Origin: a phage
NCBI GenBank assembly: GCA_014686905.1
Contig: GCA_014686905.1_4093.1
Direction: 5' to 3' (one strand)
Length of the DNA: 64,000 bases
A program made the position numbers and the translations under genes. Shown here piece by piece: positions 29,013 to 43,737 of this stretch. Under the pieces are notes generated by a model. It was not told where the DNA came from and did no database searches. It was given only the letters and a program-made list of their open reading frames with translations. Within the stretch, counting starts at the first letter, position 1. Every line of letters starts with the position of its first letter.

Positions 29013-29018
29013 GTTTTA

Positions 29019-29774: not shown

Positions 29775-29866
29775 TTCAAAAAGTACTGGACACTAAGCAA
29801 TAAAGGCGTATAATACTTTATATCGAGAGCGGGAATAGTTCCCGCTACTAATGAGGAATACTACAA

Positions 29867-30031
29867 ATGAATACTTTTACCTTCGCTCAATTGAACGCCC
29901 TGGATGTATTGTCTGATGCTTTGCGGGATGCAACTGAAAGCGGTTTATTTGACAATGTTGACATTCACCCTGATGTAATTAATAATTTTTGTGATGCTAT
30001 CGCAGAAGTACTGGAAGATCTAAAAAAATAA
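29867..30031 (+). CDS. hypothetical small protein (54 aa)
   Basis: Promoter plus leader hairpin GCGGGAATAGTTCCCGC then SD GAGGAA; hand-translated. Confidence 0.45.
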   Translation: MNTFTFAQLNALDVLSDALRDATESGLFDNVDIHPDVINNFCDAIAEVLEDLKK

Positions 30032-30119
30032 TAGAAAGTACTTGCAATTAGTTTTTAGTACTGTATAATAGTTTACATAGAGGGGAGAAATGGTTCTCCC
30101 TGGTAATGAGGAAAATAAA

Positions 30120-30341
30120 ATGGCTAATATCACTACTCTTTCTCAACTGGAAGCACTGGTTAAATCTATGCGGGAACATGCAGACAATATCGGCGTAAAA
30201 GATCCAGCCGTTTGCTTCTGCGACGAAATGAATGATGATACACTGGTAATAGCAGAAGTACAAGATATTTCTAACTATTCATCGCGTTACACTGGCGGCG
30301 TAGCAAATAAAGGTGACTTCTGTTTATACCTTACCAAATAA
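30120..30341 (+). CDS. hypothetical early protein
   Basis: Start moved to MANITTLSQ after SD GAGGAA; leader hairpin upstream. Confidence 0.55.
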   Translation: MANITTLSQLEALVKSMREHADNIGVKDPAVCFCDEMNDDTLVIAEVQDISNYSSRYTGGVANKGDFCLYLTK

Positions 30342-30346
30342 CAACG

Positions 30347-30376
30347 CGGGGAGATAATAACTCCCCGTTACTTTTT
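30347..30376 (+). terminator. intrinsic terminator-like hairpin
   Basis: CGGGGAG-ATAATAA-CTCCCCG followed by T-rich tract. Confidence 0.5.
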
Positions 30377-30585
30377 CAGTACTGAATCATTTAATAGACG
30401 GATCTCGGCACCCTGTGGGTTAGTGACTGTATCGTCTTTATGTAGTAATTATGCCAGTACTGGATGCAGTTGTCAACAATTATTTTTCAAATACTTTTTA
30501 TTAAAATACTTGCTATTAGTTTTTAAACGCGTATAATGTTTTGCATAGGGGGAGCGGTTCCCCCTGGTAACTAAGGAATAAGAAA

Positions 30586-30819
30586 ATGCTTGAACAAATC
30601 AAATCAACGTCTGCTAATGTAACGGGAACGGTATCACACTTTATTGGTGATGAATCGCGGGGCGTTCCCTATTGTGCTGTACATGTAAACACTGAGGGTA
30701 ACTACTGGTTTACGGTTTACGGATCATATTCATTTGGACGGCCAGGGCATCAAAAAATTCTGGATAAAGTACAACCAACGGGTAAAAATATCACTGCCGA
30801 AATGTTTTATAAAAACTAA
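30586..30819 (+). CDS. hypothetical early protein
   Basis: Promoter, leader hairpin GGGGGAGCGGTTCCCCC, SD AAGGAA. Confidence 0.6.
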   Translation: MLEQIKSTSANVTGTVSHFIGDESRGVPYCAVHVNTEGNYWFTVYGSYSFGRPGHQKILDKVQPTGKNITAEMFYKN

Positions 30820-30906
30820 TAAAATACTTGATAATAGTTTTTAGTACTGTATAATATTTTACATAGCACGGGGGAGCGGTTCCCCCTGGTAACTAAGGAT
30901 AATCAA

Positions 30907-31206
30907 ATGAAAATTGCAATCATCGCCCTGGCTTTATCTGTTTCCTCTTTCTCTGTTAATGCGTCGTTAGATGTACCTAGTGAAAAATTCATTCAGTGCA
31001 CCGTAGCGATGACCGATGAAAGTACTGGCGAGATTGTTTTAAAGGATTTAGAGATCCAGCCAGAAGCATTTAAAAACGGCCCGTTCCATGAAGAAGACGA
31101 AAACGGTAGCACAACAATTTATTATGATGCAAGTACTAAACGCGGTTCGGTCACTGTAATGGATACAGAGAAAGTAACACACACAGGAGTAATTAACTGT
31201 TTATAA
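30907..31206 (+). CDS. secreted/periplasmic small protein (signal peptide)
   Basis: N-terminus MKIAIIALALSVSSFSVNA-SLD has n/h/c regions and AxA-like cleavage site. Confidence 0.6.
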   Translation: MKIAIIALALSVSSFSVNASLDVPSEKFIQCTVAMTDESTGEIVLKDLEIQPEAFKNGPFHEEDENGSTTIYYDASTKRGSVTVMDTEKVTHTGVINCL

Positions 31207-31212
31207 ATCACT

Positions 31213-31240
31213 AGCCCACTCATACAGTGGGCTTTTTTAT
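31213..31240 (+). terminator. intrinsic terminator
   Basis: AGCCCACT-CATAC-AGTGGGCT followed by TTTTTT. Confidence 0.7.
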
Positions 31241-31434
31241 TTTTGTAGTACTGCATACTTTGAAAATAGTTTTAAGAAAGTAGTTGACATTACCGCAGAA
31301 AAGCGTAGAATGTATTACATCAAGACGGGGAGCACTAAGTAGACCGCCAGTAAGTCGAACGAAAAACTGGACACGTCGAGAAAACTTTGATACACTATCT
31401 AACGTAAACTAAACTTTAATTGAGGAATTATATA

Positions 31435-31917
31435 ATGGCTAATGTAAAATCATTCATCAAAGCACTGGTAGCAAATGAAACTAACGTAGCGGCAGAGATC
31501 CTGGCAGAACTGGATAACGATACCATGAAAGCAGTACGCAACAATTTTAACATTGCGTACAGTGAAGCTAAAGAACTGCAAGCCAAAAAGGTAGCAGAAC
31601 TGGAAGAACAGAAAAAAGCCCGTGAAGCAGAACTACAAGCAACAATTGAAAGTATCCAGTCGGCGGTGTCTGGATTGGATCTGGAAGTGGTTGTTGAAAT
31701 GGCACATAAAGCCCTGGCGGTTAAGTACGGTGAAGATAAGCCGGAATCTAAGCCTAAAAAATGGATTCAGGAACGCGTAGCGGTAGTACTTGATAACGGT
31801 GAAGAACATTTGATTCCTGTACGCGGTAACTGCATTGCGGTAGTACTGGACGCTATCAAAGAAAGCGGTATGACTCGCGAGGAATGGATCGAAGCTCATC
31901 GCAAAGTTGAAGCATAA
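31435..31917 (+). CDS. hypothetical protein (Lys/Glu/Ala-rich, probably helical)
   Basis: Start moved to MANVKSF after SD GAGGAA; long 5' leader. Confidence 0.6.
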   Translation: MANVKSFIKALVANETNVAAEILAELDNDTMKAVRNNFNIAYSEAKELQAKKVAELEEQKKAREAELQATIESIQSAVSGLDLEVVVEMAHKALAVKYGEDKPESKPKKWIQERVAVVLDNGEEHLIPVRGNCIAVVLDAIKESGMTREEWIEAHRKVEA

Positions 31918-31937
31918 CAATTAAAGTACTGAATCAA

Positions 31938-31966
31938 TAGCCCACCTTAAACAGTGGGCTTTTTTG
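31938..31966 (+). terminator. intrinsic terminator
   Basis: AGCCCACC-TTAAA-CAGTGGGCT followed by TTTTTT. Confidence 0.65.
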
Positions 31967-32201
31967 TGTCTATAGTATTCCAGTCCACTAGCACCGCCTA
32001 GAATCGATTCTAACGCATTAAACTGATTATCTGATACATCGCCCTAGCTGGTGGCGTTAAGGTCGTTAGAAAGCGATTGAGAGTGTTTAAAGTATTTTGC
32101 AAAAAGTAATAAAAAGTACTTGCATGATTAAGAGATTAGCGTATAATGTTTTACATCGAAAGGGGAAACGGTTCTCCTTCCAAATCAAAGGAATCAAAAC
32201 A

Positions 32202-32429
32202 ATGGCTATTATCATTACTCGCGTATCTGGTACTACTGGCAATTCTTCTACTGTTGCAGTCATTACTAACAAGGCAGGTGCGGAATTGCAAAATGCAATG
32301 AATACCTGGGCCGTTAATGAGTTCGGTCAGTGGGCAAGTGTAGCATACATTGAAACCTATCAAGTGCCGACCATTAGTTTAACGGATCTTGGTGTGGAAC
32401 GTATCCTTTGCTTGGATGAATTAAATTAA
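32202..32429 (+). CDS. hypothetical early protein
   Basis: Start moved to MAIIITRVSG after SD AAGGAA; promoter plus leader hairpin upstream. Confidence 0.55.
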   Translation: MAIIITRVSGTTGNSSTVAVITNKAGAELQNAMNTWAVNEFGQWASVAYIETYQVPTISLTDLGVERILCLDELN

Positions 32430-32514
32430 AAAAGTACTTGCAAAGTAAATCGAATAAAGTATAATACATTACATCAAGGGGAGAAATGATTCTCCCCACT
32501 ACAAGGAAACTAAT

Positions 32515-32658
32515 ATGAAAACTTGTCAATGTGGTAAAAAATCTATTACTGGTTTAAAGCGGGGCGTTGCTCTTTGCCAGTACCATTATAATTTACAAGT
32601 ATGGGGTAAAGAATGGGCCGACCAGGTGGAAGCAATTAAGAAAGCAAAAAGTAAGTAA
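32515..32658 (+). CDS. small Cys-containing protein (47 aa)
   Basis: Promoter plus leader hairpin GGGGAGAAATGATTCTCCCC; SD AAGGAA; hand-translated. Confidence 0.4.
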   Translation: MKTCQCGKKSITGLKRGVALCQYHYNLQVWGKEWADQVEAIKKAKSK

Positions 32659-32670
32659 AAATATTATCAC

Positions 32671-32708
32671 AGTACTATTGACATAGTTTGATAGTACTGG
32701 CATAATAG
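32671..32708 (+). promoter_or_regulatory. promoter module class 2 with flanking inverted repeat (AGTACTAT-TGACATAGTTTG-ATAGTACT, CATAAT), copy 1 of 3
   Basis: TTGACA, 17-bp spacer, CATAAT; near-identical modules at 35408-35446 and 43114-43150. Confidence 0.55.
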
Positions 32709-32747
32709 ATTTTATCAAGACAACATATTAATTTAAGGAATACTAAA

Positions 32748-33071
32748 ATGGCTAAAACTATCATTAACACCGTTTCCCTGGCTGCAATCCGTGCAATCAA
32801 TGTTGACGGTAAACGTTGGACTGATTCATATGGCAATACTTATCATTCTTGTCATGTAAGCGTCGAACTGGATAACGGTTTGAATGTTCTGGCGGTTGAA
32901 TCATTTACTTATGGCTATGAAGATGCATATCAACAAACGGCGTTAGATCTATTAAAGGAATCAGTAGACGGGCTTAATACTGATGAAACCTCCCTTACTC
33001 GTTTGTGCAATGATCTTAATATCCCGTTGCATTGTACTGTACAGAATGTTAAACGCAAAAAAGATCTTTAA
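32748..33071 (+). CDS. hypothetical protein; paralog of 39149-39472
   Basis: Shared motifs RWTDSxGNTYHSC, TFTYGY, VKRKKD. Confidence 0.65.
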   Translation: MAKTIINTVSLAAIRAINVDGKRWTDSYGNTYHSCHVSVELDNGLNVLAVESFTYGYEDAYQQTALDLLKESVDGLNTDETSLTRLCNDLNIPLHCTVQNVKRKKDL

Positions 33072-33151
33072 TTAGCTTTACTTTATGCAGATACTTTGAT
33101 ATAGTGTCTGCATAGGGGAAAGAAATTAAATTAACTTAAGAGGATCGTATA

Positions 33152-33421
33152 ATGAAAAATATCAGTACTTTAATCGATGCAGGTACACATGTTCGGCGGT
33201 CTATGGTTGCAACCAGTACTACAAAACAAGTAGCGAGCGGTTATCTTGTATTTGTGCACGATGGTAAACTCCTGGAACGTTCAATCAATTTTGATGTTAA
33301 AAACAATTGCCGTTTTATTATCTTTAAGCGTGAACAATATAAAATTGATTTACCAGCAAAGCCCATTAGCGGGGCGTACAACGTGCAATCATTGTTTGAG
33401 CGTCAACCTTACACCTATTAA
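33152..33421 (+). CDS. hypothetical early protein
   Basis: SD AAGAGGA upstream. Confidence 0.55.
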   Translation: MKNISTLIDAGTHVRRSMVATSTTKQVASGYLVFVHDGKLLERSINFDVKNNCRFIIFKREQYKIDLPAKPISGAYNVQSLFERQPYTY

Positions 33422-33472
33422 TCAAAACATCGTTAGCGGTCGATTTAGGCCGCTTGTATTGGGGATTATACC

Positions 33473-33643
33473 ATGAACGTTAATCAAGTACTGAATGAGA
33501 TCGAAAGCATCATTAAACCAATGAAACGCATTGATGCTATGTTAACACCGGAAGAATGCCGCCTTTATGAGCGTTACAGTGTGGAACAAGCCCAGGAAAT
33601 GGCCCGTATCCGTCCGGTTGCCAGTACTGATAAGGCGGCGTAA
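33473..33643 (+). CDS. hypothetical small protein (56 aa)
   Basis: Hand-translated; stop overlaps next start (TAATATG). Confidence 0.45.
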   Translation: MNVNQVLNEIESIIKPMKRIDAMLTPEECRLYERYSVEQAQEMARIRPVASTDKAA

Positions 33644-33644
33644 T

Positions 33645-33854
33645 ATGCTTACTGTACAGGATAAGATCGACATCTTAAAGGTTAATATGTATGTGATTGA
33701 TGCCGTACCTGGTAAAGTATTTGCATACGATGATTCTAATCGCAGTCCGTTTTATTGCAGTCATGTAGTTGGATACGTGCCGTTGGCGTATGTTATAGAA
33801 AGAGTGGTTGATGCAGCATACAAACATTTTTTAGAAAATAATACTTGCAATTAG
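33645..33854 (+). CDS. hypothetical small protein
   Basis: Start moved to MLTVQDKIDIL; translationally coupled to upstream ORF. Confidence 0.5.
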   Translation: MLTVQDKIDILKVNMYVIDAVPGKVFAYDDSNRSPFYCSHVVGYVPLAYVIERVVDAAYKHFLENNTCN

Positions 33855-33924
33855 TTTTCAGTACTGTATAATGATTTACATCGAGAGCGGGAATAGTTCC
33901 CGCCTCACTTTTAAGGAATATGAA

Positions 33925-34071
33925 ATGAAAGCATCAAAAAAGAGTAATACTAAGAAAGCATGTTCACCTTTCGCTGGGGTATTCCCTTTACGTTTCGTTG
34001 ATGAAGTGGTTTCCTACCCGCCTGGCCTTACTCCTGAGATGGTAGAAAGTTTGCGTAAATCTAAAAAATAG
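33925..34071 (+). CDS. hypothetical small basic protein (48 aa)
   Basis: Start moved to MKASKKSN after leader hairpin and SD AAGGAA. Confidence 0.45.
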   Translation: MKASKKSNTKKACSPFAGVFPLRFVDEVVSYPPGLTPEMVESLRKSKK

Positions 34072-34152
34072 TACTTGCAATTAGTTTTTAAACGCGTATA
34101 ATGTTTTACATGAAGGGGAGAAATGATTCTCCCCAATAACAGGAGAAACAAA

Positions 34153-34305
34153 ATGAAACAATATAATGCTCGGTTTGATGTTACTATCGGTAACGGCAAA
34201 GGTCAATTCTCTTTCAGTACTCGCAAAAGTTATACAGAAAACTTCCTGCGTAATTGTGCACTGACCGCCGCTCAAATTAAACATTATTTTCAGGCTAAAA
34301 AATGA
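34153..34305 (+). CDS. hypothetical small protein (50 aa)
   Basis: Start moved to MKQYNARFD after SD AGGAGA; leader hairpin upstream. Confidence 0.45.
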   Translation: MKQYNARFDVTIGNGKGQFSFSTRKSYTENFLRNCALTAAQIKHYFQAKK

Positions 34306-34391
34306 AATCATTTGCTTACTATAGTTCTGCGGTGATCGGTGCATTGATCGCGGCGTTGTTAGTAACCTATCTATTCTTTATGGTGATTTAA
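34302..34391 (+). CDS. tiny membrane peptide (29 aa)
   Basis: ATGA overlap with upstream stop; single hydrophobic helix. Confidence 0.35.
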   Translation: MKSFAYYSSAVIGALIAALLVTYLFFMVI

Positions 34392-34535
34392 ATGAATCCA
34401 ACAGGCTTAAATTATAAAAGTTGTTCGGCGTTTACGAAAGCAAATAAAGCGAATGCACGTAAAGCGAAAGTACAGGAGTACATCAAGCAAGGCATGACGC
34501 GAAAGGCGGCGATTCTAAAAGCTAAAAATAAATGA
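34392..34535 (+). CDS. small basic protein (47 aa)
   Basis: Abuts previous stop; Lys/Ala-rich. Confidence 0.4.
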   Translation: MNPTGLNYKSCSAFTKANKANARKAKVQEYIKQGMTRKAAILKAKNK

Positions 34536-34537
34536 AA

Positions 34538-34575
34538 AAAGTGGTTGACTCCGGTCAGCCATTTTGCTATTATAT
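34538..34575 (+). terminator. composite hairpin terminator plus promoter (TGGTTGAC-TCCG-GTCAGCCA, TTTTGC, TATTAT)
   Basis: Same architecture as 1157-1204; recurs at 38211, 41480, 43738. Confidence 0.55.
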
Positions 34576-34599
34576 ATTCATTGAGAGATAGCTCACTAG

Positions 34600-34624
34600 C
34601 CCACAGGGTGCATAAGTGTATCTA
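34600..34624 (+). promoter_or_regulatory. conserved intergenic motif CCCACAGGGTGCATAAGTGTATCT
   Basis: Near-identical motif at 38269-38292, 41542-41565, 43797-43820; related copies near 36270 and 28810; reverse-orientation core near 30410 and 26727. Confidence 0.5.
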
Positions 34625-34745
34625 TTATATAAGTATTGAGTACTGAAAACTATTTTTAAAAAGTACTTGCAAACTATCTCAATAAGCGTATAATGTTTTA
34701 CATCGAAAGGGGAAACGGTTTCCCCTGGTAATAAGGAAACAAATC

Positions 34746-35087
34746 ATGACTATCTCAATTGCTCAATCTAACTTTGAAAATGAAATCATCGCCCAGGCAC
34801 TGCGTTTAAATGATGGTCGGGCCGAAATTAATTACGGTTTCAATTCAGGCGGTTGCGAAAACTATCAGTACTTTGTAACGGCTGATGGCGGTGTCCTGGG
34901 TATCAATACAGTTATTGTAAACATCCAAAAAATTAATTTCAATGATCCAGACGATAGCCAGTTTTACATCACTGGCGTAGACGTGAACTATGAGGATGAC
35001 TCACTAACTGATGATCACACTGGCGAGCGGTTAGAAAGTGCATACGGTGAAGATGATTATCAGTCCGGTCCAGAAGATTTCGAATAA
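34746..35087 (+). CDS. hypothetical acidic protein
   Basis: Promoter plus leader hairpin AGGGGAAACGGTTTCCCCT; SD AAGGAAAC. Confidence 0.6.
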   Translation: MTISIAQSNFENEIIAQALRLNDGRAEINYGFNSGGCENYQYFVTADGGVLGINTVIVNIQKINFNDPDDSQFYITGVDVNYEDDSLTDDHTGERLESAYGEDDYQSGPEDFE

Positions 35088-35182
35088 TATAAAAAATAGT
35101 TTGACAATAGATTATAGTACTGTATAATAGTTTACATCAAGGGGAGAAAAACTTCTCCCCACTAACAGAGAGAGAAAACAAA

Positions 35183-35395
35183 ATGGCTAATATCCGGTCG
35201 AAATTAAAAAATGCAAAACAAGTTTTATTTTCAGATCATGAATACTTTAATAAAGATATTACAGGAGTTACAAGTATCAAGGAAGTAAAAGAAAAAACCG
35301 GCGTTTTGTGTGATGTGCGATTAGTTGGAACATTTGGGAATAACGTGCTATATCGCTGCGGTGATTACAATTTTACACTGACTATCATTAACTAA
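35183..35395 (+). CDS. hypothetical early protein
   Basis: TTGACA promoter, leader hairpin GGGGAGAAAAACTTCTCCCC, SD AGAGAGAGAA. Confidence 0.55.
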   Translation: MANIRSKLKNAKQVLFSDHEYFNKDITGVTSIKEVKEKTGVLCDVRLVGTFGNNVLYRCGDYNFTLTIIN

Positions 35396-35407
35396 AAATA
35401 TTATCAC

Positions 35408-35446
35408 AGTACTATTGACATAGTTTGATAGTACTGACATAATAAC
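35408..35446 (+). promoter_or_regulatory. promoter module class 2 with flanking inverted repeat, copy 2 of 3
   Basis: AGTACTATTGACATAGTTTGATAGTACTGACATAATAAC. Confidence 0.55.
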
Positions 35447-35478
35447 TTTTATCAACTACACTACTAAGGAATTAAAAA

Positions 35479-35658
35479 ATGGCTATCATCGCAAAAACTG
35501 AAATCGTTGGTCTGGATTCTATCATCATGACGTTTGAAGATCAAAAAGGTATGTATGTAGTTTCCTATGGTGATTATGTTCGGGAGTATGAAACGGTAGA
35601 CGAAGCCTTTGAAAGTTATATTCGCCAGGTGAATAAAGCATACGATGACTACCGCTAA
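35479..35658 (+). CDS. hypothetical small protein (59 aa)
   Basis: SD AAGGAA; hand-translated MAIIAKTEIVGLDS... Confidence 0.45.
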   Translation: MAIIAKTEIVGLDSIIMTFEDQKGMYVVSYGDYVREYETVDEAFESYIRQVNKAYDDYR

Positions 35659-35757
35659 AATATATTACCAGTACTATTAAATCTATTGACAACGTTTGAT
35701 AGTACTGTATAATAAGTTTTATAAACAGTAGTTAACTTAACCTAAGAGAGAAACAAA

Positions 35758-35901
35758 ATGATCGCACTGGATTCATTCATCGACGCAGTACTGGCAAAAA
35801 CTGGCGAGGATCTGACCGCAGAACAATACGCGATGATCGAGCAATGTCAGCAAAACGGTAAATCGGTGAAAGATACTGTTAAGATTATCCGCAAGATGTA
35901 A
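35758..35901 (+). CDS. hypothetical small protein (47 aa)
   Basis: SD AAGAGAGAAAC; followed by hairpin. Confidence 0.45.
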   Translation: MIALDSFIDAVLAKTGEDLTAEQYAMIEQCQQNGKSVKDTVKIIRKM

Positions 35902-35907
35902 TATTAT

Positions 35908-35936
35908 AGCCCACTGGTTAACGCTGGTGGGCTTTA
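35908..35936 (+). terminator. terminator-like hairpin
   Basis: AGCCCAC-TGGTTAACGCTG-GTGGGCT, weak T tract. Confidence 0.45.
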
Positions 35937-36006
35937 ATCATTTACCCTATACAATGCCAGTACTAAACCGTTTATCTCATTAGAATGCGTTACAGGACGT
36001 TTAACA

Positions 36007-36204
36007 ATGATTAGCATGAAATCAGTACAAAAACAAATAGAAACATTATCAAAAATTAAACGTAAACAATACTCCTTAGAATATACAATCAATGGTAACT
36101 ATCATCTAATGAAAGAAAATAATTTTATAGTCATTGATGAATCATTGCAAATCATTAGTATAGTACTGAAAGCATTAATCAATGACAGAAAAAAATTAAA
36201 ATAA
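36007..36204 (+). CDS. hypothetical small protein
   Basis: 65-aa ORF; weak SD. Confidence 0.45.
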   Translation: MISMKSVQKQIETLSKIKRKQYSLEYTINGNYHLMKENNFIVIDESLQIISIVLKALINDRKKLK

Positions 36205-36295
36205 TTGTTGACATACAATGCCAGTACTGGCATAATACTTACATCAAGACGAGAACGTCACCAACCCATAGGGTGCACAAATGTAACTATATAAT

Positions 36296-36375
36296 ATCGA
36301 TCAATAAATGATCAAAAAAGTACTGGATCAATTTAGCATAAGGCGTATAATTCTGATCAATTCTTGATCAAAGGC
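36296..36375. repeat. cluster of five GATCAA (three as TGATCAA) repeats within 73 bp, overlapping a TATAAT box
   Basis: GATCAA at 36299, 36310, 36326, 36355, 36366. Confidence 0.55.
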
Positions 36376-36532
36376 AATAAACGTAGTTGAAATTATATAG
36401 AAAGTACAAAGGCGTTACCATTCGTGGTAATGCTGGGGAATATGTAGTATCATACGGTTTGAATAAAATCAGTACTAGTAGTATAATCGTAGCATTGCAG
36501 TACTATAGTATTTTTATAATGAGGTTAAAATA

Positions 36533-36790
36533 ATGGCTGTAGGATTTGCGAAGGACGGGGCCGAACAAGACGAGATTAACGCAGTGATTCAGGCCGCCGT
36601 AAACCACGCTAGAAAGCAAATTAACGCACAAATAGAATCACTGGTACATTGCCTCGACTGCGGCGATATAATCCCTGAGAAACGACGCCAGGCCGTTAAG
36701 GGATGTAAGTACTGCATAACTTGCCAGGAGGATCATGATAGTACTTTTAAACGTCCCCCGCGTAATTGTTGGCATAGATCTATGAGATAA
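36533..36790 (+). CDS. DksA/TraR-family C4 zinc-finger protein
   Basis: CLDCGDIIPEKRRQAVKGCKYCITC: two CxxC pairs with typical spacing, small size. Confidence 0.65.
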   Translation: MAVGFAKDGAEQDEINAVIQAAVNHARKQINAQIESLVHCLDCGDIIPEKRRQAVKGCKYCITCQEDHDSTFKRPPRNCWHRSMR

Positions 36791-36853
36791 AAAGTATTGA
36801 CAGTACTGAAAGATAGTGTATAATATTTTATATCTTAACTGAGGATTGAAATC

Positions 36854-37210
36854 ATGGGAATACAACATATCACGCGTACTACTGACAATGGCGAGATCAC
36901 TGGCTATCAAGTACAGGGCAAAGTAGCACAATTGCAGTACTGGTTTGTTAAACGTGGAATCATTGCACCGGATCTTGATTATGACCGTGTAGCGTTTATT
37001 GATTCTCTTTATGTTGATCCTGATAGTCGGGGCAATGGTGAAGGTAACGAATTAATGAATGCCTTTATTGATGCCGCCGATGATTCAGATTGTATCATTT
37101 TAGAATGCGATACAGGAGAAGATAACGCCTTCAATCTTAAAGAATGGTACGAAGGTTTCGGATTCGAGGTACTGATCGATAGTGAATATCCTATCATGAT
37201 TTTATCATAG
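36854..37210 (+). CDS. putative GNAT-type acetyltransferase-like protein
   Basis: LYVDPDSRGNGEGNELMNAF resembles the GNAT acetyl-CoA-binding loop; weak. Confidence 0.4.
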   Translation: MGIQHITRTTDNGEITGYQVQGKVAQLQYWFVKRGIIAPDLDYDRVAFIDSLYVDPDSRGNGEGNELMNAFIDAADDSDCIILECDTGEDNAFNLKEWYEGFGFEVLIDSEYPIMILS

Positions 37211-37288
37211 TACTTGCATTTAGTTTTCAGTACTGTTATAGTACTTACATCAAGGGGAAACATCTTCCCCTACTAAGAGGAAATAAAA

Positions 37289-37477
37289 ATGGAAAACTTA
37301 TCAAGTATTTTAGTACAAGATGATTTCGGTAATCCTGGAAGTGCTATCATTGTTCGGGGTAATAAAGCAACGTTTGTTATTGCTGGTGGACCTGTACAGC
37401 GTAGCATTAAAAATAATGCTGTTACCATTAATAATGTACGCTATCGCTTAGATAAAGAATTGATTCATAAACTTTAA
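37289..37477 (+). CDS. hypothetical early protein
   Basis: Promoter, leader hairpin GGGGAAACATCTTCCCC, SD AGAGGAAA. Confidence 0.55.
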   Translation: MENLSSILVQDDFGNPGSAIIVRGNKATFVIAGGPVQRSIKNNAVTINNVRYRLDKELIHKL

Positions 37478-37561
37478 AAAGTATTTGACAATAGATTATA
37501 GTACTGTATAATAAGTTACATGAAGGGGTGAAATGATTCTCCCCACTAAGAGGAAAGAAAA

Positions 37562-37774
37562 ATGCAAGGTCAACTAATCGTTCGTAAATGGTCTGATACT
37601 AACGAAAAACCGTGGGATGTACAATACATCGGACCGGATGGGGTATCACGTTATCAGCCTGGCGTAACGCATAGTACTGAGCAATTCGCAAACGCTCACC
37701 GCGAACGCCTGTTAGAATCCATGAAACAGGGATTCTGTGAAAAATTCATTCAAGATCATTGGCTGAAAGATTAA
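37562..37774 (+). CDS. hypothetical early protein
   Basis: TTGACA promoter, leader hairpin, SD AGAGGAAAG. Confidence 0.55.
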   Translation: MQGQLIVRKWSDTNEKPWDVQYIGPDGVSRYQPGVTHSTEQFANAHRERLLESMKQGFCEKFIQDHWLKD

Positions 37775-37791
37775 TATAAGGAGTACAGCTT

Positions 37792-37884
37792 ATGCAAATG
37801 AATCCGATGATTATTGTTTTAGCTGTACTTATGATCATTCATGCAATAGTAGAAGTATTAACGCAATCAGGAGTAATAAAATGA
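37792..37884 (+). CDS. tiny membrane peptide (30 aa)
   Basis: SD AAGGAG; single hydrophobic helix. Confidence 0.35.
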   Translation: MQMNPMIIVLAVLMIIHAIVEVLTQSGVIK

Positions 37885-38054
37885 TTCAAGTAGAATTATC
37901 AGTACTGAAAGATCTGTTTTATCGGTTAGGTACTACTGGCGAGTATCCTAAAAGTGATACCGCAAAACTTTTTGTATCACTCGACTTATGGCAACGCGAA
38001 CAATTAGTAATGTCCTGGCGTAAAGGTAAAGCAGATAGCGAGGTGAAAGCATGA
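37881..38054 (+). CDS. hypothetical small protein (57 aa)
   Basis: ATGA overlap with upstream peptide. Confidence 0.45.
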   Translation: MIQVELSVLKDLFYRLGTTGEYPKSDTAKLFVSLDLWQREQLVMSWRKGKADSEVKA

Positions 38055-38200
38055 AAGAATTCTTATTCGAAGTAGTGTTTCAAGGTGTCGGTAGTAACCA
38101 ACTGATTCGCTCAAGTGGTTACAATGTTAACCAGGCATGGAATAACATTAAACAAATGTACCCGAACGCTATCACCTATCGCAACCCGAAACAAGTTTAA
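38051..38200 (+). CDS. hypothetical small protein (49 aa)
   Basis: ATGA overlap; followed by composite terminator element. Confidence 0.45.
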   Translation: MKEFLFEVVFQGVGSNQLIRSSGYNVNQAWNNIKQMYPNAITYRNPKQV

Positions 38201-38210
38201 AAATAATTGA

Positions 38211-38250
38211 AAAAGGGATTGACTCCGGTCAGTCCCTTTGCTATTATATA
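38211..38250 (+). terminator. composite hairpin terminator plus promoter (GGGATTGAC-TCCG-GTCAGTCCC, TATTAT)
   Basis: Same architecture as 1157-1204. Confidence 0.55.
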
Positions 38251-38372
38251 CGCATAGAAACAAATCAGCCCACAGGGTGCATAAATGTATCTATTGTTTG
38301 CTGGTGGCTAGTACTGAAAACTATTTTTAAAAAAGTACTTGCATTGTACTTAGAATCAAGTATAATGTTTTA

Positions 38373-38450
38373 CATCAGGACGGGGAACGAAACAAGTAAC
38401 CCCGTTAAGTAGTCCAGGAGTAAGACATAAGAAAACCTCCCCTGATAAAA
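38373..38450 (+). ncRNA. candidate small structured RNA / leader element between tandem promoters (copy 2)
   Basis: Near-identical to 29019-29096; bracketed by two promoters. Confidence 0.3.
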
Positions 38451-38515
38451 TAGTTTGACAATAGAAAGTAAACGAGTATAATACTTACATCAACCACTGA
38501 TAAGGAAACATTAAA

Positions 38516-38791
38516 ATGCGGATTCTACTGACAGCTAACGAAATCGAACAAGTACTGACTACTAACCTGGAAGACTGGAAACGTGAAGCAGATATCCAGG
38601 CGGTTCAACGGCTTAACGATGAGTTAACGCCGGATGACTTAAGCAAGATTGTAGATCCTCAATTCTACGAAGATATCCACGACACCGCGTTAAGCGTCGA
38701 GGATGTACTAGATAAGCACTACATTGATATTGATTTGCAGGTTTACGGTCGTAAAAACTTTATCACTATTCACGACATTTACAATAATTAA
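38516..38791 (+). CDS. hypothetical acidic protein
   Basis: SD AAGGAAAC; 91-aa ORF. Confidence 0.6.
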   Translation: MRILLTANEIEQVLTTNLEDWKREADIQAVQRLNDELTPDDLSKIVDPQFYEDIHDTALSVEDVLDKHYIDIDLQVYGRKNFITIHDIYNN

Positions 38792-38877
38792 GTATTGACA
38801 AAGTATCTTAGTACTGTATAATAGTTTACATCGAGAGGGGGAATGGTTCCCCTCCTAACAAAGAGAGAGAAATAAAA

Positions 38878-39060
38878 ATGGCTAAATGCACTATCTGTAA
38901 GAAAGAAATCGTATTAGTTCCAAGTGCCCGTGAACGTGCCGCTCGGTTCGGTGGCAAACCGTCAGACTATACAAAAATGTTTACTGTCCATGCAGCTTGC
39001 CAGGTAGCAAAACGTTCACAAGAAAGCGTAGAATTAATGCGTAAACTTTCCAAAAAATAA
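38878..39060 (+). CDS. hypothetical small basic protein
   Basis: TTGACA promoter, leader hairpin GAGGGGGAATGGTTCCCCTCC, SD AGAGAGAGA. Confidence 0.55.
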   Translation: MAKCTICKKEIVLVPSARERAARFGGKPSDYTKMFTVHAACQVAKRSQESVELMRKLSKK

Positions 39061-39148
39061 GTATTGACAAAGTATCTTAGTACTGTATAATAGTTTACAT
39101 CAAGTGAGGGGAAACGGTTCCCCTCCTAACAAAGAGAGAGAAATAAAA

Positions 39149-39472
39149 ATGGCTATGATCCTTGCCCAGAAAGTAGAACTGAAAATTGTAACCTCCTTTG
39201 ACATTAAAGTTAATCGGTGGACTGATTCACACGGCAATACTTACCACTCTTGCTACGTGTCTGCGTTAATTGGTGATCGTTGGGAAGACCTGGGACATGA
39301 AACCTTTACATACGGTTACGGCACACAAGGCGAATACACGGGCTTGGAGATCATTAAAGAAACCGTTATAGGTTTCAACCCGAAAGAAAAAGTTATTCAC
39401 CGCATCGAAAAAGAGATTAACAAAGAAATAACAGTTCGATACAACGATGTAAAACGTAAGAAAGACATGTAA
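39149..39472 (+). CDS. hypothetical protein; paralog of 32748-33071
   Basis: Start moved to MAMILAQK; shared RWTDSHGNTYHSC...TFTYGY...VKRKKD; promoter plus leader duplicated from the 38878 unit. Confidence 0.65.
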   Translation: MAMILAQKVELKIVTSFDIKVNRWTDSHGNTYHSCYVSALIGDRWEDLGHETFTYGYGTQGEYTGLEIIKETVIGFNPKEKVIHRIEKEINKEITVRYNDVKRKKDM

Positions 39473-39567
39473 TAGAATCCATTTAAAGTACTATTTGACA
39501 TTGCCCAGATAGTACTTTATAATAGACTCTAACTTGTAGTACTAACTCAACTAATAGGATGTATACC

Positions 39568-39963
39568 ATGATTACTAAATTCTACGCTACCCGTGAAGCT
39601 GCCCGTATTGTTGCACGCGAGGAAGGAGCAGCATTTAAAGACATGGGCAAAGATGCACCGAAAGGTCAACGCTGGGCCGTACAGTTCAAAGAAATCTCTG
39701 ATATCGTGAATTCACCGGAGCCAGTACTAACAGCAGCAGAACTAAAACGAGCGGATTTACTGGCGGCAGTACTTAACGCACAAGATGAATTTATCGCTGA
39801 TTCTGATATCAAAGTACAGACAAACCATACCGCTTGGACTCACGCGGATCACCTGGCAAACCTTAAGCGTCCAAGTGAACTGGTACGCAACCAGAAAGAG
39901 ATCCGACACGACCGTAAGGGTAATCGTGTAACAGTATACAGTAAACGCCGCCAGGTTATCTAA
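39568..39963 (+). CDS. hypothetical protein; paralog of 28151-28417
   Basis: MITKFYATREAARIV...DRKGNRVTVYSKRR. Confidence 0.6.
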   Translation: MITKFYATREAARIVAREEGAAFKDMGKDAPKGQRWAVQFKEISDIVNSPEPVLTAAELKRADLLAAVLNAQDEFIADSDIKVQTNHTAWTHADHLANLKRPSELVRNQKEIRHDRKGNRVTVYSKRRQVI

Positions 39964-39985
39964 TAACTTGCAGTACTAACAACAC

Positions 39986-40010
39986 GGCGGGATCAGTTCC
40001 CGCCTTTTTT
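39986..40010 (+). terminator. intrinsic terminator
   Basis: GGCGGGA-TCAGT-TCCCGCC followed by TTTTTT. Confidence 0.7.
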
Positions 40011-40025
40011 ATAGGATAAACTAAA

Positions 40026-40280
40026 ATGATTAAGGTACAACTATCTAAAGATAATATCTTGCGGGTACACTATAAAGCACCACAGAGAATCATCACAAAG
40101 GCCGTACAGCTTGCTAATGAGTTTATTAATGGTAACCTATTACCAAGGAAGTTAAGCAACGGAAAACTGCGTGTAATCGATGTAGACACTAACAACAGAA
40201 TAGTAATAGAGAACACAGGAAAGATAAACCTTTATGAACATCAACAATATAATAAGAAAATAAAACTAATATCACGTTGA
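40026..40280 (+). CDS. hypothetical protein
   Basis: 84-aa ORF; SD-like AGGATAAAC. Confidence 0.5.
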   Translation: MIKVQLSKDNILRVHYKAPQRIITKAVQLANEFINGNLLPRKLSNGKLRVIDVDTNNRIVIENTGKINLYEHQQYNKKIKLISR

Positions 40281-40333
40281 CAGTACTCAATTGTTTTAGT
40301 ATTATGTACACATACCAACACGGGAGAAACAAA

Positions 40334-40552
40334 ATGAAATTATCTAAAATCGAAAAGAAAACTATTGATGAAGCAGTTAAGCACGGTTATACCTTTCGTA
40401 ATGATTCACATTTTACCAATTTTCAACAAGGCCAAAGGACTATTAAAAAACTAATTGACAAAGGTTTATTAGTTAAAGTAGATAACGGTAACGGCATTGA
40501 GTATCAGCCAACCCAAGACGCATTATCTTTAAAGAAATATGCAATTATCTAA
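40334..40552 (+). CDS. hypothetical protein
   Basis: Start moved to MKLSKIEKK after SD GGGAGAAAC; promoter TTGACAGTACTCAATTGTTTTAGTATTATGTACA duplicated before next gene. Confidence 0.5.
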   Translation: MKLSKIEKKTIDEAVKHGYTFRNDSHFTNFQQGQRTIKKLIDKGLLVKVDNGNGIEYQPTQDALSLKKYAII

Positions 40553-40609
40553 TTGACAGTACTCAAATGTTTTAGTACTATATGTACATACCAACACGGG
40601 GGAAACAAA

Positions 40610-40852
40610 ATGATTACTTTAGAAAAACGTATCAAAGAAACTACATCGCTGGTGGAACTGTTAACAGTACTGAAATGTAAAACAACACCATTCAGCACGC
40701 CGGACTTTATTAATATGGTTGATGTTAATGGTCGCTATCGTATCACGGTCGAACAAGGAGCGGCGAAAGTATTCAGTACTAAAAACACTAAGGAAGTGAT
40801 CCACGCCGTTAATGTTAAAAAAGTAGTTGCAATTGATAGTAAAGTACTGTAA
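40610..40852 (+). CDS. hypothetical protein
   Basis: Start moved to MITLEKRIKE after SD GGGGGAAAC; duplicated promoter block. Confidence 0.5.
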   Translation: MITLEKRIKETTSLVELLTVLKCKTTPFSTPDFINMVDVNGRYRITVEQGAAKVFSTKNTKEVIHAVNVKKVVAIDSKVL

Positions 40853-40883
40853 TATAGTTTCATTAACTCAAGGAGAACATGCA

Positions 40884-41468
40884 ATGCGTAATTATACTAA
40901 ATTCATCCGTACCCTGTCAGAAATGGAAACTAACAAAGAGATCCTTTCAGCTTGTCGGTTAGCTGGACTGGAGATCATCGGGGCGGGATCTTCCCGTATA
41001 GTTTTCGCTTTAAATGATCGGTTAGTGATTAAGGTCGCCAATTGTGATGCGGGTGTAGAACAAAATGAAACTGAATGTAAGGTATGGAATTTTTTAGACT
41101 ATGACCGCCCTCAATTGAAACAGTACTTTGCTAAAGTGCATATGCATTTAAGCGATCCTGATAATATGTTTATCGTTATGGATCGGTTGAGTACTGCAAG
41201 CAAAGGCAGTGTAAAGCACGTTAACGCGTGCAACGAATTAAAGTACAATATTAAACGTAATGCAATTGAACGCCAGCACCGCTTTGCTGATGCACTACAA
41301 CACGTTGATGATACACTGTCAACACTAACGATAAGAGATATCAGAAAACAGAATATCGGCCAGGATCGCAACGGCCTTATTAAAGTACTTGATTACGGTT
41401 TAACCCGCAATATCTGGAATCAGTACTATAAAAAGCGGGATGTAAAAGCCGTAACTATAACACGATAA
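40884..41468 (+). CDS. minimal protein-kinase-like protein
   Basis: Gly-rich loop IIGAGSSRIVF, VIKVA (VAIK-like Lys), catalytic-loop-like RDIRKQN, DFG-like DYG, in kinase order. Confidence 0.55.
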   Translation: MRNYTKFIRTLSEMETNKEILSACRLAGLEIIGAGSSRIVFALNDRLVIKVANCDAGVEQNETECKVWNFLDYDRPQLKQYFAKVHMHLSDPDNMFIVMDRLSTASKGSVKHVNACNELKYNIKRNAIERQHRFADALQHVDDTLSTLTIRDIRKQNIGQDRNGLIKVLDYGLTRNIWNQYYKKRDVKAVTITR

Positions 41469-41479
41469 AAAAGATTAAA

Positions 41480-41517
41480 AAAGGGATTGACTTCGGTCAG
41501 TCCCTTTGCTATTATAT
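41480..41517 (+). terminator. composite hairpin terminator plus promoter
   Basis: GGGATTGAC-TTCG-GTCAGTCCC, TTTGC, TATTAT. Confidence 0.55.
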
Positions 41518-41691
41518 ATTCATTGAGAGATAGCTCACTGACCCACAGGGTGCATAAATGTATCTATTATATAAGTATTCAGTACTGAAAACTATTTTTA
41601 AAAAAGTACTTGCATTGTACTTAGAATCAAGTATAATGTTTTATATCGAGAGGGGGAAATGGTTCTCCCTCAAAGAATAAGGAATAAAATC

Positions 41692-41913
41692 ATGACTACA
41701 ATGACTTGCATTTACGCTTCCAATCTTCTGAATGATGCGGCCTTTAATGTTGATTCAGAATATCAATGTTATCGGGATGAAAATAAAAAAGTTTTTGTAG
41801 TTGATAATAATGGTTTCCATATTGAATTACAATCCGGTTTCACTGGTGTTGATGGTAAATCAGTATGGGGCGTACAGGATGATAACGGTACATATCATTT
41901 TAAACGTAATTAA
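41692..41913 (+). CDS. hypothetical early protein
   Basis: Start moved to MTTMTCIYAS after SD AAGGAA; leader hairpin AGGGGGAAATGGTTCTCCCT. Confidence 0.55.
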   Translation: MTTMTCIYASNLLNDAAFNVDSEYQCYRDENKKVFVVDNNGFHIELQSGFTGVDGKSVWGVQDDNGTYHFKRN

Positions 41914-41997
41914 GTATTGACAAAGTATCTTAGTACTGTATAATAGTTTACATCAAGGGGAGAATAGTTCTCCCCGATACTAAAAGGAAACAAAATT

Positions 41998-42270
41998 ATG
42001 TCCAGCTACTCCGCTACTATGATCATTAAAGATATGAACGGTAATCCTACTTCTGCTGGTGGATCATTTGGAAACATTAATTTAGATGGTCGGTTATCCA
42101 TGCAATCAGCCATCGATGCAGCGAAAGAAGTTTTTAAGAATGAATGTACTGTTAGTAAGCTGGATTATATGGGATTCGCTATCGAGAAAACTAATCGTTT
42201 TGTGAACTACAAAAATCCACTGATGATTGATACTAACCTGAAAGCTAACGAAGTGGGGTACTTATTATGA
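41998..42270 (+). CDS. hypothetical early protein
   Basis: TTGACA promoter, leader hairpin GGGGAGAATAGTTCTCCCC, SD AAGGAAAC. Confidence 0.6.
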   Translation: MSSYSATMIIKDMNGNPTSAGGSFGNINLDGRLSMQSAIDAAKEVFKNECTVSKLDYMGFAIEKTNRFVNYKNPLMIDTNLKANEVGYLL

Positions 42271-42458
42271 CAGTAGAAGAAGTTAAAAAAGTACTGGCAG
42301 TACTACGCTATCATAATCATTGCAAGGTGAAGAATGATCCTGATTATGTTGATTCATCCCTGGAGGAAGACACATTAAACGCAATAAGCCATATGCAAAC
42401 ATTAGCAAAGCGTATGACCGAAAAGAATAGACCGGACTATATCGGAAATAAAATTTAA
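42267..42458 (+). CDS. hypothetical small protein
   Basis: ATGA overlap with upstream gene. Confidence 0.5.
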   Translation: MTVEEVKKVLAVLRYHNHCKVKNDPDYVDSSLEEDTLNAISHMQTLAKRMTEKNRPDYIGNKI

Positions 42459-42544
42459 AAAGTACTTGCATTGTAGTTAGATTAACGTATAATGTTTTAC
42501 ATAGAGCGGGGGAATAGTTCTCCCGCCAGTCCAGGAGATACACC

Positions 42545-42808
42545 ATGAACACTATCGAAATCACTATCAATGCACACGTATACGACAACGTAGTACTGCA
42601 AACTACTATGACCGCTAATGATACCAGTACTTTGCGGAATACTGTTATTAGTGCCGTATGTGCCGCTATCGGTGATGTCGCCCTGGAAAATGCAGAACAC
42701 ATCAACGACGGTTTCACTATGTGCAAACGTGATAACGCAAAACATATCATCGTAGAAGGTTACGGCGGTGTAGAATATAATCTTTATATGAAAAAAGTAC
42801 TTGCATAA
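42545..42808 (+). CDS. hypothetical early protein
   Basis: Promoter, leader hairpin GCGGGGGAATAGTTCTCCCGCC, SD AGGAGA. Confidence 0.6.
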   Translation: MNTIEITINAHVYDNVVLQTTMTANDTSTLRNTVISAVCAAIGDVALENAEHINDGFTMCKRDNAKHIIVEGYGGVEYNLYMKKVLA

Positions 42809-42875
42809 TAACTAAAACAAAGTATAATGTTTTGCATAGGGGGAGATATCCTCCCCCACTAAAAGGAGTAATAAA

Positions 42876-43100: not shown

Positions 43101-43113
43101 AAGTTTTATTTCA

Positions 43114-43150
43114 GTACTATTGACATAGCTTGATAGTACTGATGTAATAA
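43114..43150 (+). promoter_or_regulatory. promoter module class 2 with flanking inverted repeat, copy 3 of 3
   Basis: AGTACTATTGACATAGCTTGATAGTACTGATGTAATAAC. Confidence 0.55.
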
Positions 43151-43176
43151 CTTTACTAACTACAAGGGGAAACATA

Positions 43177-43724: not shown

Positions 43725-43737
43725 CAAAAAAGAATAA

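Follow-up and report, generated by a model that had tools for sequence, protein, structure and literature searches.

A cluster of GATCAA repeats overlaps one member of a promoter family within the terminal repeat of an Asteriusvirus jumbo coliphage

The window analysed here, i.e. the whole stretch of 64,000 nucleotides, belongs to an Asteriusvirus jumbo coliphage, and the array of GATCAA repeats under study is located inside a direct terminal repeat of about 21 kb. The region 35900-37300 shares 93-97% identity with the Asteriusvirus jumbo coliphages 121Q, PBECO4, Turkey3, and fEgEco12, and the 336 bp around the array are 100% identical to phage Turkey3. The homologous position is found at 12.0-12.4 kb in vB_Ec-M-J, within the annotated 21,525-bp direct terminal repeat, and at 11.2-11.5 kb of the 20,993-bp terminal repeat of fEgEco12, which is backed by PhageTerm and by restriction digests. 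A host or plasmid origin of the region was considered and discarded: a blastn search against 5,426 E. coli genomes gave no match, and the sole plasmid match was a chance one, from Borrelia. The neighbourhood comprises very small genes arrayed on one strand, each with its own promoter-like sites. To our knowledge, the timing of the approximately 50 small early genes in the 21-kb terminal repeats of Rak2/121Q-type jumbo phages is barely understood, and the literature on 121Q-like phages makes no mention of the array, of the promoter family, or of the motifs described here. The locus comprises the following features.

36193-36521, no strand assigned: 329-bp module with P1, its leader, the GATCAA array, P3, and most of ORF48; missing from phage ph0011 in the alignment
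36208-36236, plus strand: predicted promoter P1, TTGACA, 17 nt, TG-extended CATAAT; 11 of 12 matches in the promoter scan
36237-36295, plus strand: conserved leader after P1, ACATCAAG...CCCATAGGGTGC...ATGTAACTAT, about 55 nt; a repeated element of the terminal repeat
36296-36301: ClaI site ATCGAT, overlapping site 1
36299-36304, plus strand: site 1, cGATCAAt; in all three haplotypes, as TTGATCAA in allele B
36309-36315, plus strand: site 2, TGATCAA, 11 bp after site 1; GATC in all haplotypes
36319-36351, plus strand: putative promoter P3, AGTAC (36319-36323), -35 hexamer TGGATC (36324-36329), 16-nt spacer, -10 hexamer TATAAT (36346-36351)
36326-36331, plus strand: site 3, gGATCAAt, in the -35 hexamer of P3 (TTGATC in allele B); in all haplotypes
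36354-36360, plus strand: site 4, TGATCAA, over the expected P3 start, 3-9 nt past the -10 hexamer; in allele A only
36364-36371, plus strand: site 5, TTGATCAA, an 8-bp palindrome, 11 bp after site 4; absent from allele B
36387-36533, plus strand: ORF48, a 48-aa ORF (121Q gp293, PBECO4 gp253) with a TTG or GTG start
36459-36487, plus strand: promoter-like site in ORF48, TTGAAT, 17 nt, TATAAT, just upstream of the TraR-like gene
36533-36790, plus strand: TraR/DksA-like C4 zinc-finger gene, 85 aa (PF01258, E = 1.4e-10; phrog_54, DksA-like)

The gap between the two flanking genes is 328 bp. The original prediction described a non-coding stretch of 330 bp, but only 36205-36386 is non-coding, since 36387-36533 codes for the conserved ORF48. 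The cluster does lie upstream of the DksA/TraR-like gene, as had been claimed, but the gene directly downstream is ORF48: sites 4 and 5 are followed by AAAGG and then by the TTG start codon of this ORF. The ORF48 protein occurs as two alleles of equal length with 62.5% identity and conservative changes, although the DNA is strongly diverged. It matches phrog_38664, has no Pfam match and no homologues outside Asteriusvirus, and shows no detectable paralogy with the 65-aa ORF upstream. A single-sequence AlphaFold model (pLDDT 71) predicts one long helix. We considered ORF48 as an autoregulator and set this aside, given the lack of a Pfam match and of homologues beyond the genus and the uninformative structure model. 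The stop codon of ORF48 overlaps the ATG of the TraR/DksA-like gene (TAATG). The cluster had been described as overlapping a promoter upstream of the latter gene; the array sits on the promoter of ORF48 instead, and the TraR-like gene has a promoter-like site of its own at 36459-36487, whose -10 hexamer is TATTAT in most relatives. TraR-like proteins have been shown to reprogram host RNA polymerase directly (PMC9239242). The arrangement is best explained by P3 driving ORF48, which would be translationally coupled to the TraR-like factor, a protein of the RNA polymerase-binding type.

All five GATCAA copies were found where they had been predicted, at 36299, 36310, 36326, 36355, and 36366, three of them as TGATCAA (36309, 36354, and 36365), and the GCGTATAAT box said to lie amid the sites is present at 36343-36351, between sites 3 and 4. 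The distances from each site to the next are 11, 16, 29, and 11 bp, and the array spans 73 bp. Sites 4 and 5 are arranged as an inverted repeat, TGATCAA-TTC-TTGATCA (36354-36370). The window contains 120 GATC in total, and its densest 80-bp stretch, with five GATC, occurs at the array only. Enrichment over background was the check named beforehand, and the cluster well exceeds chance: Markov-1 simulations, modelled on the GATC-richest 22 kb, yielded maxima of 2-4 GATC and 1-2 GATCAA per 80 bp and never reached five (n=300). In 121Q, the homologous site is again the sole cluster of five GATC per 80 bp in the 200 kb scanned. The GATC cluster is real and non-random.

The sequence flanking the GATC cores is also unusual. 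Over the whole window, GATCAA is rarer than chance would give (23 observed versus 41.6 +/- 6.3 expected, both strands), and six of these 23 copies fall within the 73 bp of the array. On the plus strand, a 3' AA flank is found on five of five GATC in the cluster versus 11 of the 115 others in the window, an excess with a binomial probability of about 1e-5 (arithmetic estimate). As the AA is kept on all five sites, the repeat unit is (T)GATCAA and not bare GATC. Two perfect 27-bp copies were also assessed, but the pattern was defined from those same copies, which makes their significance partly circular. Outside the terminal repeat, the observed/expected ratio of GATC is 0.28-0.34, an approximately 3-fold depletion, versus 0.91 inside. 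GATC is selected against elsewhere in the phage genome, and this depletion indicates that it is not neutral for the phage.

The TATAAT at 36346 belongs to a 17-member family of early sigma-70-type promoters, and site 3 coincides with the -35 hexamer, in line with the predicted overlap of cluster and promoter. The family, aaaaAGTAC-TTGCA(A/T)-N16-TATAAT, comprises about 17 promoters between 27279 and 44305, and was found by scanning for AGTAC, followed by a TTGACA-like hexamer and by a good -10 hexamer 15-18 nt further on. P3 was picked out by alignment with its 16 siblings, independently of the GATC sites. It exhibits the complete upstream half of the family pattern (aaaaAGTAC, a TTGACA-like -35, a 16-nt spacer, and TATAAT), and the 12-mer AAGGCGTATAAT is common to P3 and three siblings. 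This family membership suggests that P3 is a functional promoter.

P3 departs from its siblings in two respects. At the position of site 3, the siblings exhibit TTGCAA, TTGCAT, or TGGACA, whereas the -35 hexamer of P3 (TGGATC or TTGATC) keeps the GATC in every haplotype; TGGATC is a poorer match to the TTGACA consensus than the TTGCAA or TGGACA of the siblings. Downstream, the siblings share gttttACAT(C/A) and a GC-rich hairpin at the 5' end (GGGGAgAA...TTCTCCCC), followed by a Shine-Dalgarno sequence and ATG. P3 exhibits tctGATCAATTCTTGATCAAAGG instead, together with a TTG start codon, and sites 4 and 5 stand in place of the family gttttACATC and GC hairpin leader. The predicted leader fold is -1.4 kcal/mol for P3 versus -9.4 to -15.9 kcal/mol for the siblings. 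Each of the 16 siblings has 0-1 GATC per 140 bp, versus five in P3. As the array is absent from the otherwise uniform siblings, it is an add-on to one member of the family. Relative to P3, the sites lie at about -60, at about -49, and in the -35 hexamer, and in allele A also at +1 and about +11. With a GATC in the -35 hexamer (site 3) and another in the start region (site 4), P3 has the sequence make-up expected of a Dam-sensitive promoter.

P1 begins directly past the stop codon of the 65-aa ORF, 110 bp upstream of P3, and is kept in 16 of 16 aligned relatives. As no terminator-like site was predicted in the interval between this strong promoter and ORF48, ORF48 may be transcribed regardless of P3. 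The leader following P1 ends with ...ATGTAACTATATAAT and carries a TATAAT at 36290-36295. It is present in six copies in the window, and jumbo phages of Erwinia and Klebsiella have further copies in their terminal repeats. RNAalifold on nine copies showed no covariation or compensatory pairs, and we rejected a structured RNA in this leader. The TATAAT at 36290 was also considered as a further promoter, P2, but it is probably not one: it has no usable -35, it is TATAAC in two relatives, and it is the 3' end of the repeated leader.

Comparison of 16 Asteriusvirus sequences and two metagenomic contigs (L146 and L147) revealed three haplotypes. Allele A, in nine sequences, has the five GATC sites, except for Turkey5, in which site 5 is lost by a change of GATC to GTTC; the A-tract before AGTAC is 4-8 nt long. 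Allele B, in seven sequences, has four GATC sites, all upstream of the -10 hexamer: it exhibits TTGATCAAAAAATGATCTGATCAATACTTGATCAA, with an additional TGATCAA in place of the A-tract, the -35 hexamer TTGATC, and no sites downstream of the -10 hexamer. The recombinant haplotype, in the two metagenomic contigs, joins the left half of allele A to the right half of allele B and has three GATC (sites 1-3). Sites 1-3 are thus found in all three haplotypes despite differences at about 40% of the surrounding positions; from site 2 to the -10 hexamer, identity among haplotypes is about 59% (hand count). Pairs of sites 11 bp apart are formed by sites 1-2 and 4-5 in allele A and by sites 1-2 and 2'-3 in allele B, 2' being the additional site. 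With an A-tract of 4-8 nt, depending on the relative, the upstream pair does not keep a constant helical phase with P3. Moreover, there are only three haplotypes, each with little internal diversity, so that this conservation is weak evidence.

The 329-bp module is not universal in related phages. In ph0011, the 65-aa ORF abuts the TraR-like gene, which is fused behind it, and blastn and tblastn detected neither ORF48 nor the array in ph0011, phAPEC6, UE-S1, Sharanji, G17, or EJP2. Ten metagenomic homologues of the TraR-like gene (L148-L157, 63-73% identity) have no upstream GATC cluster, and most of them are coupled directly to an upstream coding gene. We therefore rejected the array as a general companion of TraR/DksA-like genes. 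Together, the absence of the module from these relatives and the lack of a cluster at the more distant genes indicate that the array is tied to the ORF48 module, lineage-specific, and dispensable. In IMG/VR, the composite TATAAT-N3-GATCAAT-N3-TGATCAAA was found solely in 121Q. A scan of IMG/VR for triple TGATCAA gave at least 120 loci, which are mostly coding tandem repeats of the GDQ or DDQ type and have little bearing on the array.

The array probably gives P3 its own control. That it does so as a methylation-state-sensitive operator, allowing separate control of P3, is the reading we favour, tentatively and as something short of probable. The array would be a promoter-specific control region of (T)GATCAA heptamers, each with a Dam site, decorating the atypical P3. 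The adenines in the sites would be methylated by the host Dam, by the phage's own Dam-family enzyme, or by both, and a site-reading protein would then occupy the core promoter. Candidate readers are SeqA, acting on hemimethylated, newly replicated DNA, and a sequence-specific factor whose binding would be changed by N6-methyladenine. Expression of ORF48, and part of that of the TraR-like gene, would become dependent on the methylation or replication state of the phage DNA, whereas the sibling promoters would be unaffected.

Several observations favour this proposal, among them the non-random clustering, the low GATC count of the sibling promoters, the retention of sites 1-3 in every haplotype, and the depletion of GATC outside the terminal repeat. 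GATC is the Dam site, and the hosts E. coli and Salmonella have Dam. The 121Q protein gp417, encoded outside the window, matches the PF05869 Dam-family methyltransferases (E = 7e-32), and Sharanji also encodes a Dam-family methyltransferase. In vivo, SeqA prefers GATC sites separated by about 10 or 20 bp and by less than 50 bp (PMC2912659), and the spacings of 11, 16, 29, and 11 bp in the array are compatible with this rule. On the other hand, Dam and SeqA read GATC only, yet the AA flank is present on five of five sites, along with a 5' T. These conserved flanks suggest that SeqA or Dam by itself does not account for the array and that there is another or an additional reader; a TGATCAA-specific binder would be required, or is at any rate plausible. 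The variation at sites 4 and 5, which are missing from allele B and from the recombinant haplotype, and the loss of site 5 in Turkey5 also argue against a methylation reading, as do the inconstant phasing of the upstream pair and the possible transcription of ORF48 from P1. Protein binding at the array and a role for methylation are both inferred. A more ambitious version, which we consider unlikely, is that the array is a replication sensor, serving as an epigenetic early-to-middle switch in a lytic jumbo phage and using the phage's Dam-family enzyme. Fully methylated infecting DNA would represent one state of P3. As replication outpaces re-methylation, hemimethylated sites would recruit SeqA or release a methylation-dependent binder, and P3 would flip. 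Production of the 48-aa protein and of the TraR-like factor would thus be timed to the onset of DNA replication.

The main rival of a methylation-sensitive array is an operator that is independent of methylation. In this case, a DNA-binding protein of the phage or of the host would recognise the asymmetric TGATCAA, often as pairs 11 bp apart like OmpR/PhoB-type direct repeats, and repress or activate P3, the GATC core being incidental. The AA flank of five of five sites (eight of nine with allele B included) and the T preceding seven of nine favour this, as readers of GATC alone need neither. In addition, the two TGATCAA of allele B, 11 bp apart, lie exactly where a pho box replaces a -35, the -35 hexamer and +1 are classic repressor positions, and non-coding TGATCAA iteron arrays with periods of 10-14 bp occur in unrelated viral contigs. 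Nevertheless, no candidate regulator emerged, and the 64-kb window contains no other promoter-associated TGATCAA, hence no regulon. The consensus sites of host factors in 36280-36385, namely IHF (WATCAANNNNTTR), FNR (TTGAT-N4-ATCAA), the DnaA box, and a DnaA-ATP I-site-like 9-mer, have no match at one mismatch or fewer, and matches at two mismatches are at background frequency. In a Dam+ host, moreover, a protein bound in the major groove would almost certainly be influenced by methylation of the adenines there, so that strict independence of methylation is unlikely. Overall, we hold this explanation to be rather unlikely. It is less easy still to accept that the array has no function of its own and arose in a redundant, decaying promoter downstream of the strong P1, as a by-product of local slippage and duplication or of a recombination event at a mosaic junction; we regard this as unlikely. 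It is within the cluster that the strongly conserved P1 leader gives way to the much diverged 5' region of ORF48, and the recombinants TH47, L146, and L147 break at that boundary. Allele B exhibits a tandem duplication of TGATC, the 11-mers GATCAATAAAT and GATCAAAAAAG differ at two positions only, and the dispensability of the module, the loss of site 5 in Turkey5, the poor -35 hexamer of P3, and its lack of the family leader all fit such a history. However, the heptamers are exact while the spacers are unrelated (AAAT, AAAAAGTACTG, 23 nt, and TTCTT), which points to selection on the motif and not to a recent duplication. The depletion of GATCAA elsewhere in the window also speaks against a by-product, as do the persistence of sites 1-3 in three diverged haplotypes and the gain of a site by allele B.

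Two further explanations place the function elsewhere. The GAUCAA copies could act at the RNA level, in transcripts from P1, where they and two small hairpins would affect the stability or translation of ORF48, like the 5' hairpins of the siblings. The candidate hairpins are GAUCA-AUAAA-UGAUC and UGAUCAA-UUC-UUGAUCA, the latter just before the Shine-Dalgarno AAAGG. All sites are oriented with transcription, a perfect inverted repeat of 7 bp made up of sites 4 and 5 takes the position of the 5' hairpin of the siblings, and structure prediction for 36243-36400 gave a z-score of -2.1. We nonetheless consider this very unlikely: the hairpins are weak, and the leader from the sibling-equivalent start reaches only -1.4 kcal/mol versus -9 to -16 in the siblings; if transcription began at the family position, part of the 5' arm would be lost; neither site 4 nor site 5 exists in allele B or in the recombinant haplotype; and an Rfam search of 35300-37300 gave no hit, even at E < 5. 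We also know of no RNA-binding protein that recognises GAUCAA. An essential cis-acting site is barely credible, be it a packaging site of the phage P1 type, an origin of replication (with iterons or an unwinding element), or a signal that halts injection. Its attraction comes from the location of the array within the terminal repeat, from the GATC richness of oriC-type origins, and from the pac site of phage P1, where the PacA/PacB pacase reads TGATCA/G hexamers (4 + 3 copies) and Dam methylation regulates cleavage (PMC10028697). This site is the clearest precedent for a phage protein reading TGATCA in a methylation-dependent manner. When compared with the phage P1 sequence, the array has the same TGATCA unit, with every copy a Dam site and with two sub-clusters (3 + 2 (T)GATCA sites); the spacing in phage P1 is 7-15 bp. 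The pac site, however, is part of the terminase gene pacA, with an IHF site and the cleavage point between its clusters; it sets the genome end and is essential. The array, in contrast, overlaps a promoter and lies about 11-12 kb inside a repeat of about 21 kb, the ends of which were placed elsewhere by PhageTerm and restriction digests; it lacks an IHF consensus and can be dispensed with. The terminase gene (121Q gene 4) is also far away. The iteron-like role raised in the original prediction, or an origin-like one, has to be abandoned, as the spacers are irregular, no DnaA box was found at one mismatch or fewer, and the six phages without the 329-bp module are viable, which excludes an origin or packaging site. 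Since dispensability and position exclude an origin, a pac site, and an injection signal, gene-specific control at the DNA level remains, and the sites are placed as for a regulator that contacts the core promoter.

Such an operator would have several relatives. Dam-sensitive promoters with a GATC in the -35, -10, or +1 region include pIN of the IS10 transposase, dnaA P2, pR2 of phage P1 cre, and traJ of pSLT, and hemimethylation of such promoters can couple expression to replication. P3, a putative sigma-70 promoter of a phage with Dam+ hosts, resembles them in that GATC occupies both its -35 hexamer and its expected start point. These promoters have one or two GATC each, whereas the array has three to five with a conserved AA flank. 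The GATC density of the array is higher than that of oriC, which is a SeqA target along with the dnaA promoter and GATC-dense genes, and its spacings are within the range preferred by SeqA (PMC2912659). In contrast to the array, SeqA targets show no flank preference, and the array is a 73-bp island in the GATC-poor genome of a lytic phage. The Dam/OxyR and Dam/Lrp switches (Mu mom, agn43, opvAB, and pap) likewise have three or four GATC close to the promoter, in a region bound by a protein, and there methylation and binding are mutually exclusive. However, they are heritable switches of cells or prophages, whereas the array is located in the early region of a lytic phage and has no OxyR or Lrp consensus. 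Finally, the array shares with pho-box and other OmpR-family repeats the heptamer direct repeats, the 11-bp period, and the position beside or over the -35. The clearest parallel to a pho box is allele B, which exhibits TGATCAA-TACT-TGATCAA with the TATAAT -10 hexamer 16 nt later. The sequence is nevertheless different, the pairs of allele A lie at -60/-49 and +1/+11, and no response regulator is implicated. The array therefore probably joins a known class, that of GATC-containing operator clusters at promoters, and is not a new kind of system.

The locus offers a natural contrast, as only one of seventeen near-identical promoters has added methylatable sites. Should the array be read by way of adenine methylation, a lytic phage would provide a compact case of gene timing that is epigenetic or coupled to replication, and the Dam-family enzyme of the phage would gain a function beyond anti-restriction. 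Even if the array is inert, a missed small gene has been annotated and a promoter family has been defined. Natural variants are at hand, including haplotypes with five, four, and three sites, the site-5 point mutant Turkey5, and deletions of the module. BclI and ClaI recognise the sites of the array, and Dam methylation blocks cleavage by either enzyme.

Near-identical early promoters recur across the terminal repeat, and a further repeated unit couples a strong promoter to a conserved sequence of about 55 nt:
27279-44305 of the window, plus strand: 17 near-identical early promoters, aaaaAGTAC-TTGCA(A/T)-16 nt-TATAAT-gttttACATC.
28820, 34600, 36265, 38269 and 41542 (plus strand) and 30419 (minus strand) of the window: the six copies of the promoter with the ~55-nt unit.

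Downstream of each promoter of the 17-site family come, in this order, a GC-rich 5' hairpin (GGGGAgAA..TTCTCCCC), a Shine-Dalgarno sequence and an ATG. These hairpins range from -9 to -16 kcal/mol and include compensatory variants. A metagenomic contig of a jumbo phage, 366 kb in length (L150), shows the same promoter-hairpin-Shine-Dalgarno-ATG design.

The ~55-nt unit reads ...CCCAYAGGGTGC-N6-TGTATCTAT and, together with its promoter, is 76-80% conserved in the terminal repeats of phages of other genera, namely Erwinia phage Hallingskeid and Klebsiella phage Muenster, and likewise in the Asteriusvirus phage EJP2 (L022-L024). At these three loci, the unit is oriented opposite to the adjacent genes, and in this respect it resembles a small RNA gene. 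As RNAalifold detected no covariation in the unit, it may be a DNA or RNA signal that acts through its sequence.

From base composition, about 22 copies of the palindrome AGTACT would be expected in the whole window; there are 255, with the highest density in 24001-46000. Within promoters, it has two preferred placements: it either adjoins the -35 hexamer (AGTAC|TTGCAA), 27 nt upstream of the -10 hexamer, or provides the TG of an extended -10 element (CAGTACTGGCATAAT), 7-8 nt upstream of the -10 hexamer. AGTACT is also often contained in genes, and it is frequent in the terminal-repeat loci of Hallingskeid and Muenster. A literature search found nothing on this palindrome.

Outside the terminal repeat (window 1-24000 and 46001-64000), the ratio of observed to Markov-expected GATC is 0.28-0.34, a depletion of about 3-fold; inside it (24001-46000), the ratio is 0.91, near expectation. 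In 121Q, 10-kb bins outside the repeat contain 7-21 GATC sites, versus 49 and 26 in the two bins at 140-160 kb. The following 121Q gene is relevant to these GATC counts and to the abundance of AGTACT alike:
193985-194506 of 121Q (43985-44506 in L012): gp417, annotated merely as 'DNA methyltransferase'.
Based on its profile match, gp417 is a predicted Dam-family N6-adenine methyltransferase (PF05869, E = 7e-32; phrog_111).

GCGC is absent from the whole window (0 sites in 1-64000, versus 45 +/- 7 expected from shuffles) and also from 121Q 1-200000 (L009-L012). Such complete avoidance suggests strong selection, for example by a nuclease or nickase that is specific for GCGC and comes from the phage or the host. 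The phage also encodes a C5-cytosine methyltransferase (121Q gp91, PF00145). No mention of the absence of GCGC was noticed in papers on this phage group that were consulted on other points.

On sequence comparison, the ORF48 module (window 36193-36521) is a mosaic unit. Two diverged alleles of it exist, and in ph0011 it is deleted between two ...TTAAAATAATG gene ends. In TH47 and in the metagenomic contigs OERM01000014 and OERD01000139, the recombination of the module falls within the GATCAA cluster.

Two further features were noted:
26439-26544 of the window: the 8-bp unit CTAGACGG, repeated in tandem about 11 times.
135195-137160 of 121Q (35195-37160 in L011): about 2 kb without an annotated gene.
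The tandem array, which was also scored with 32- and 40-bp periods, belongs by its position to the left portion of the terminal-repeat region. The stretch without annotated genes ends directly ahead of the densely arrayed small early genes and is probably close to the left end of the repeat.

Non-coding iteron-like arrays built on TGATCAA, such as CACTGATCAATCAGTGATCAATCATGGATCAATCAGTGATCAA, are present in unrelated viral contigs from IMG/VR:
11-bp period: L038, L078, L111 and L115.
14-bp period: L048, L087, L098, L113 and L067.
Further iteron-like arrays: L045, L129, L128 and L132.
The heptamer therefore serves as a repeat unit elsewhere too. The other matches listed in the triple-TGATCAA scan are mostly coding repeats of the GDQ/DDQ type.
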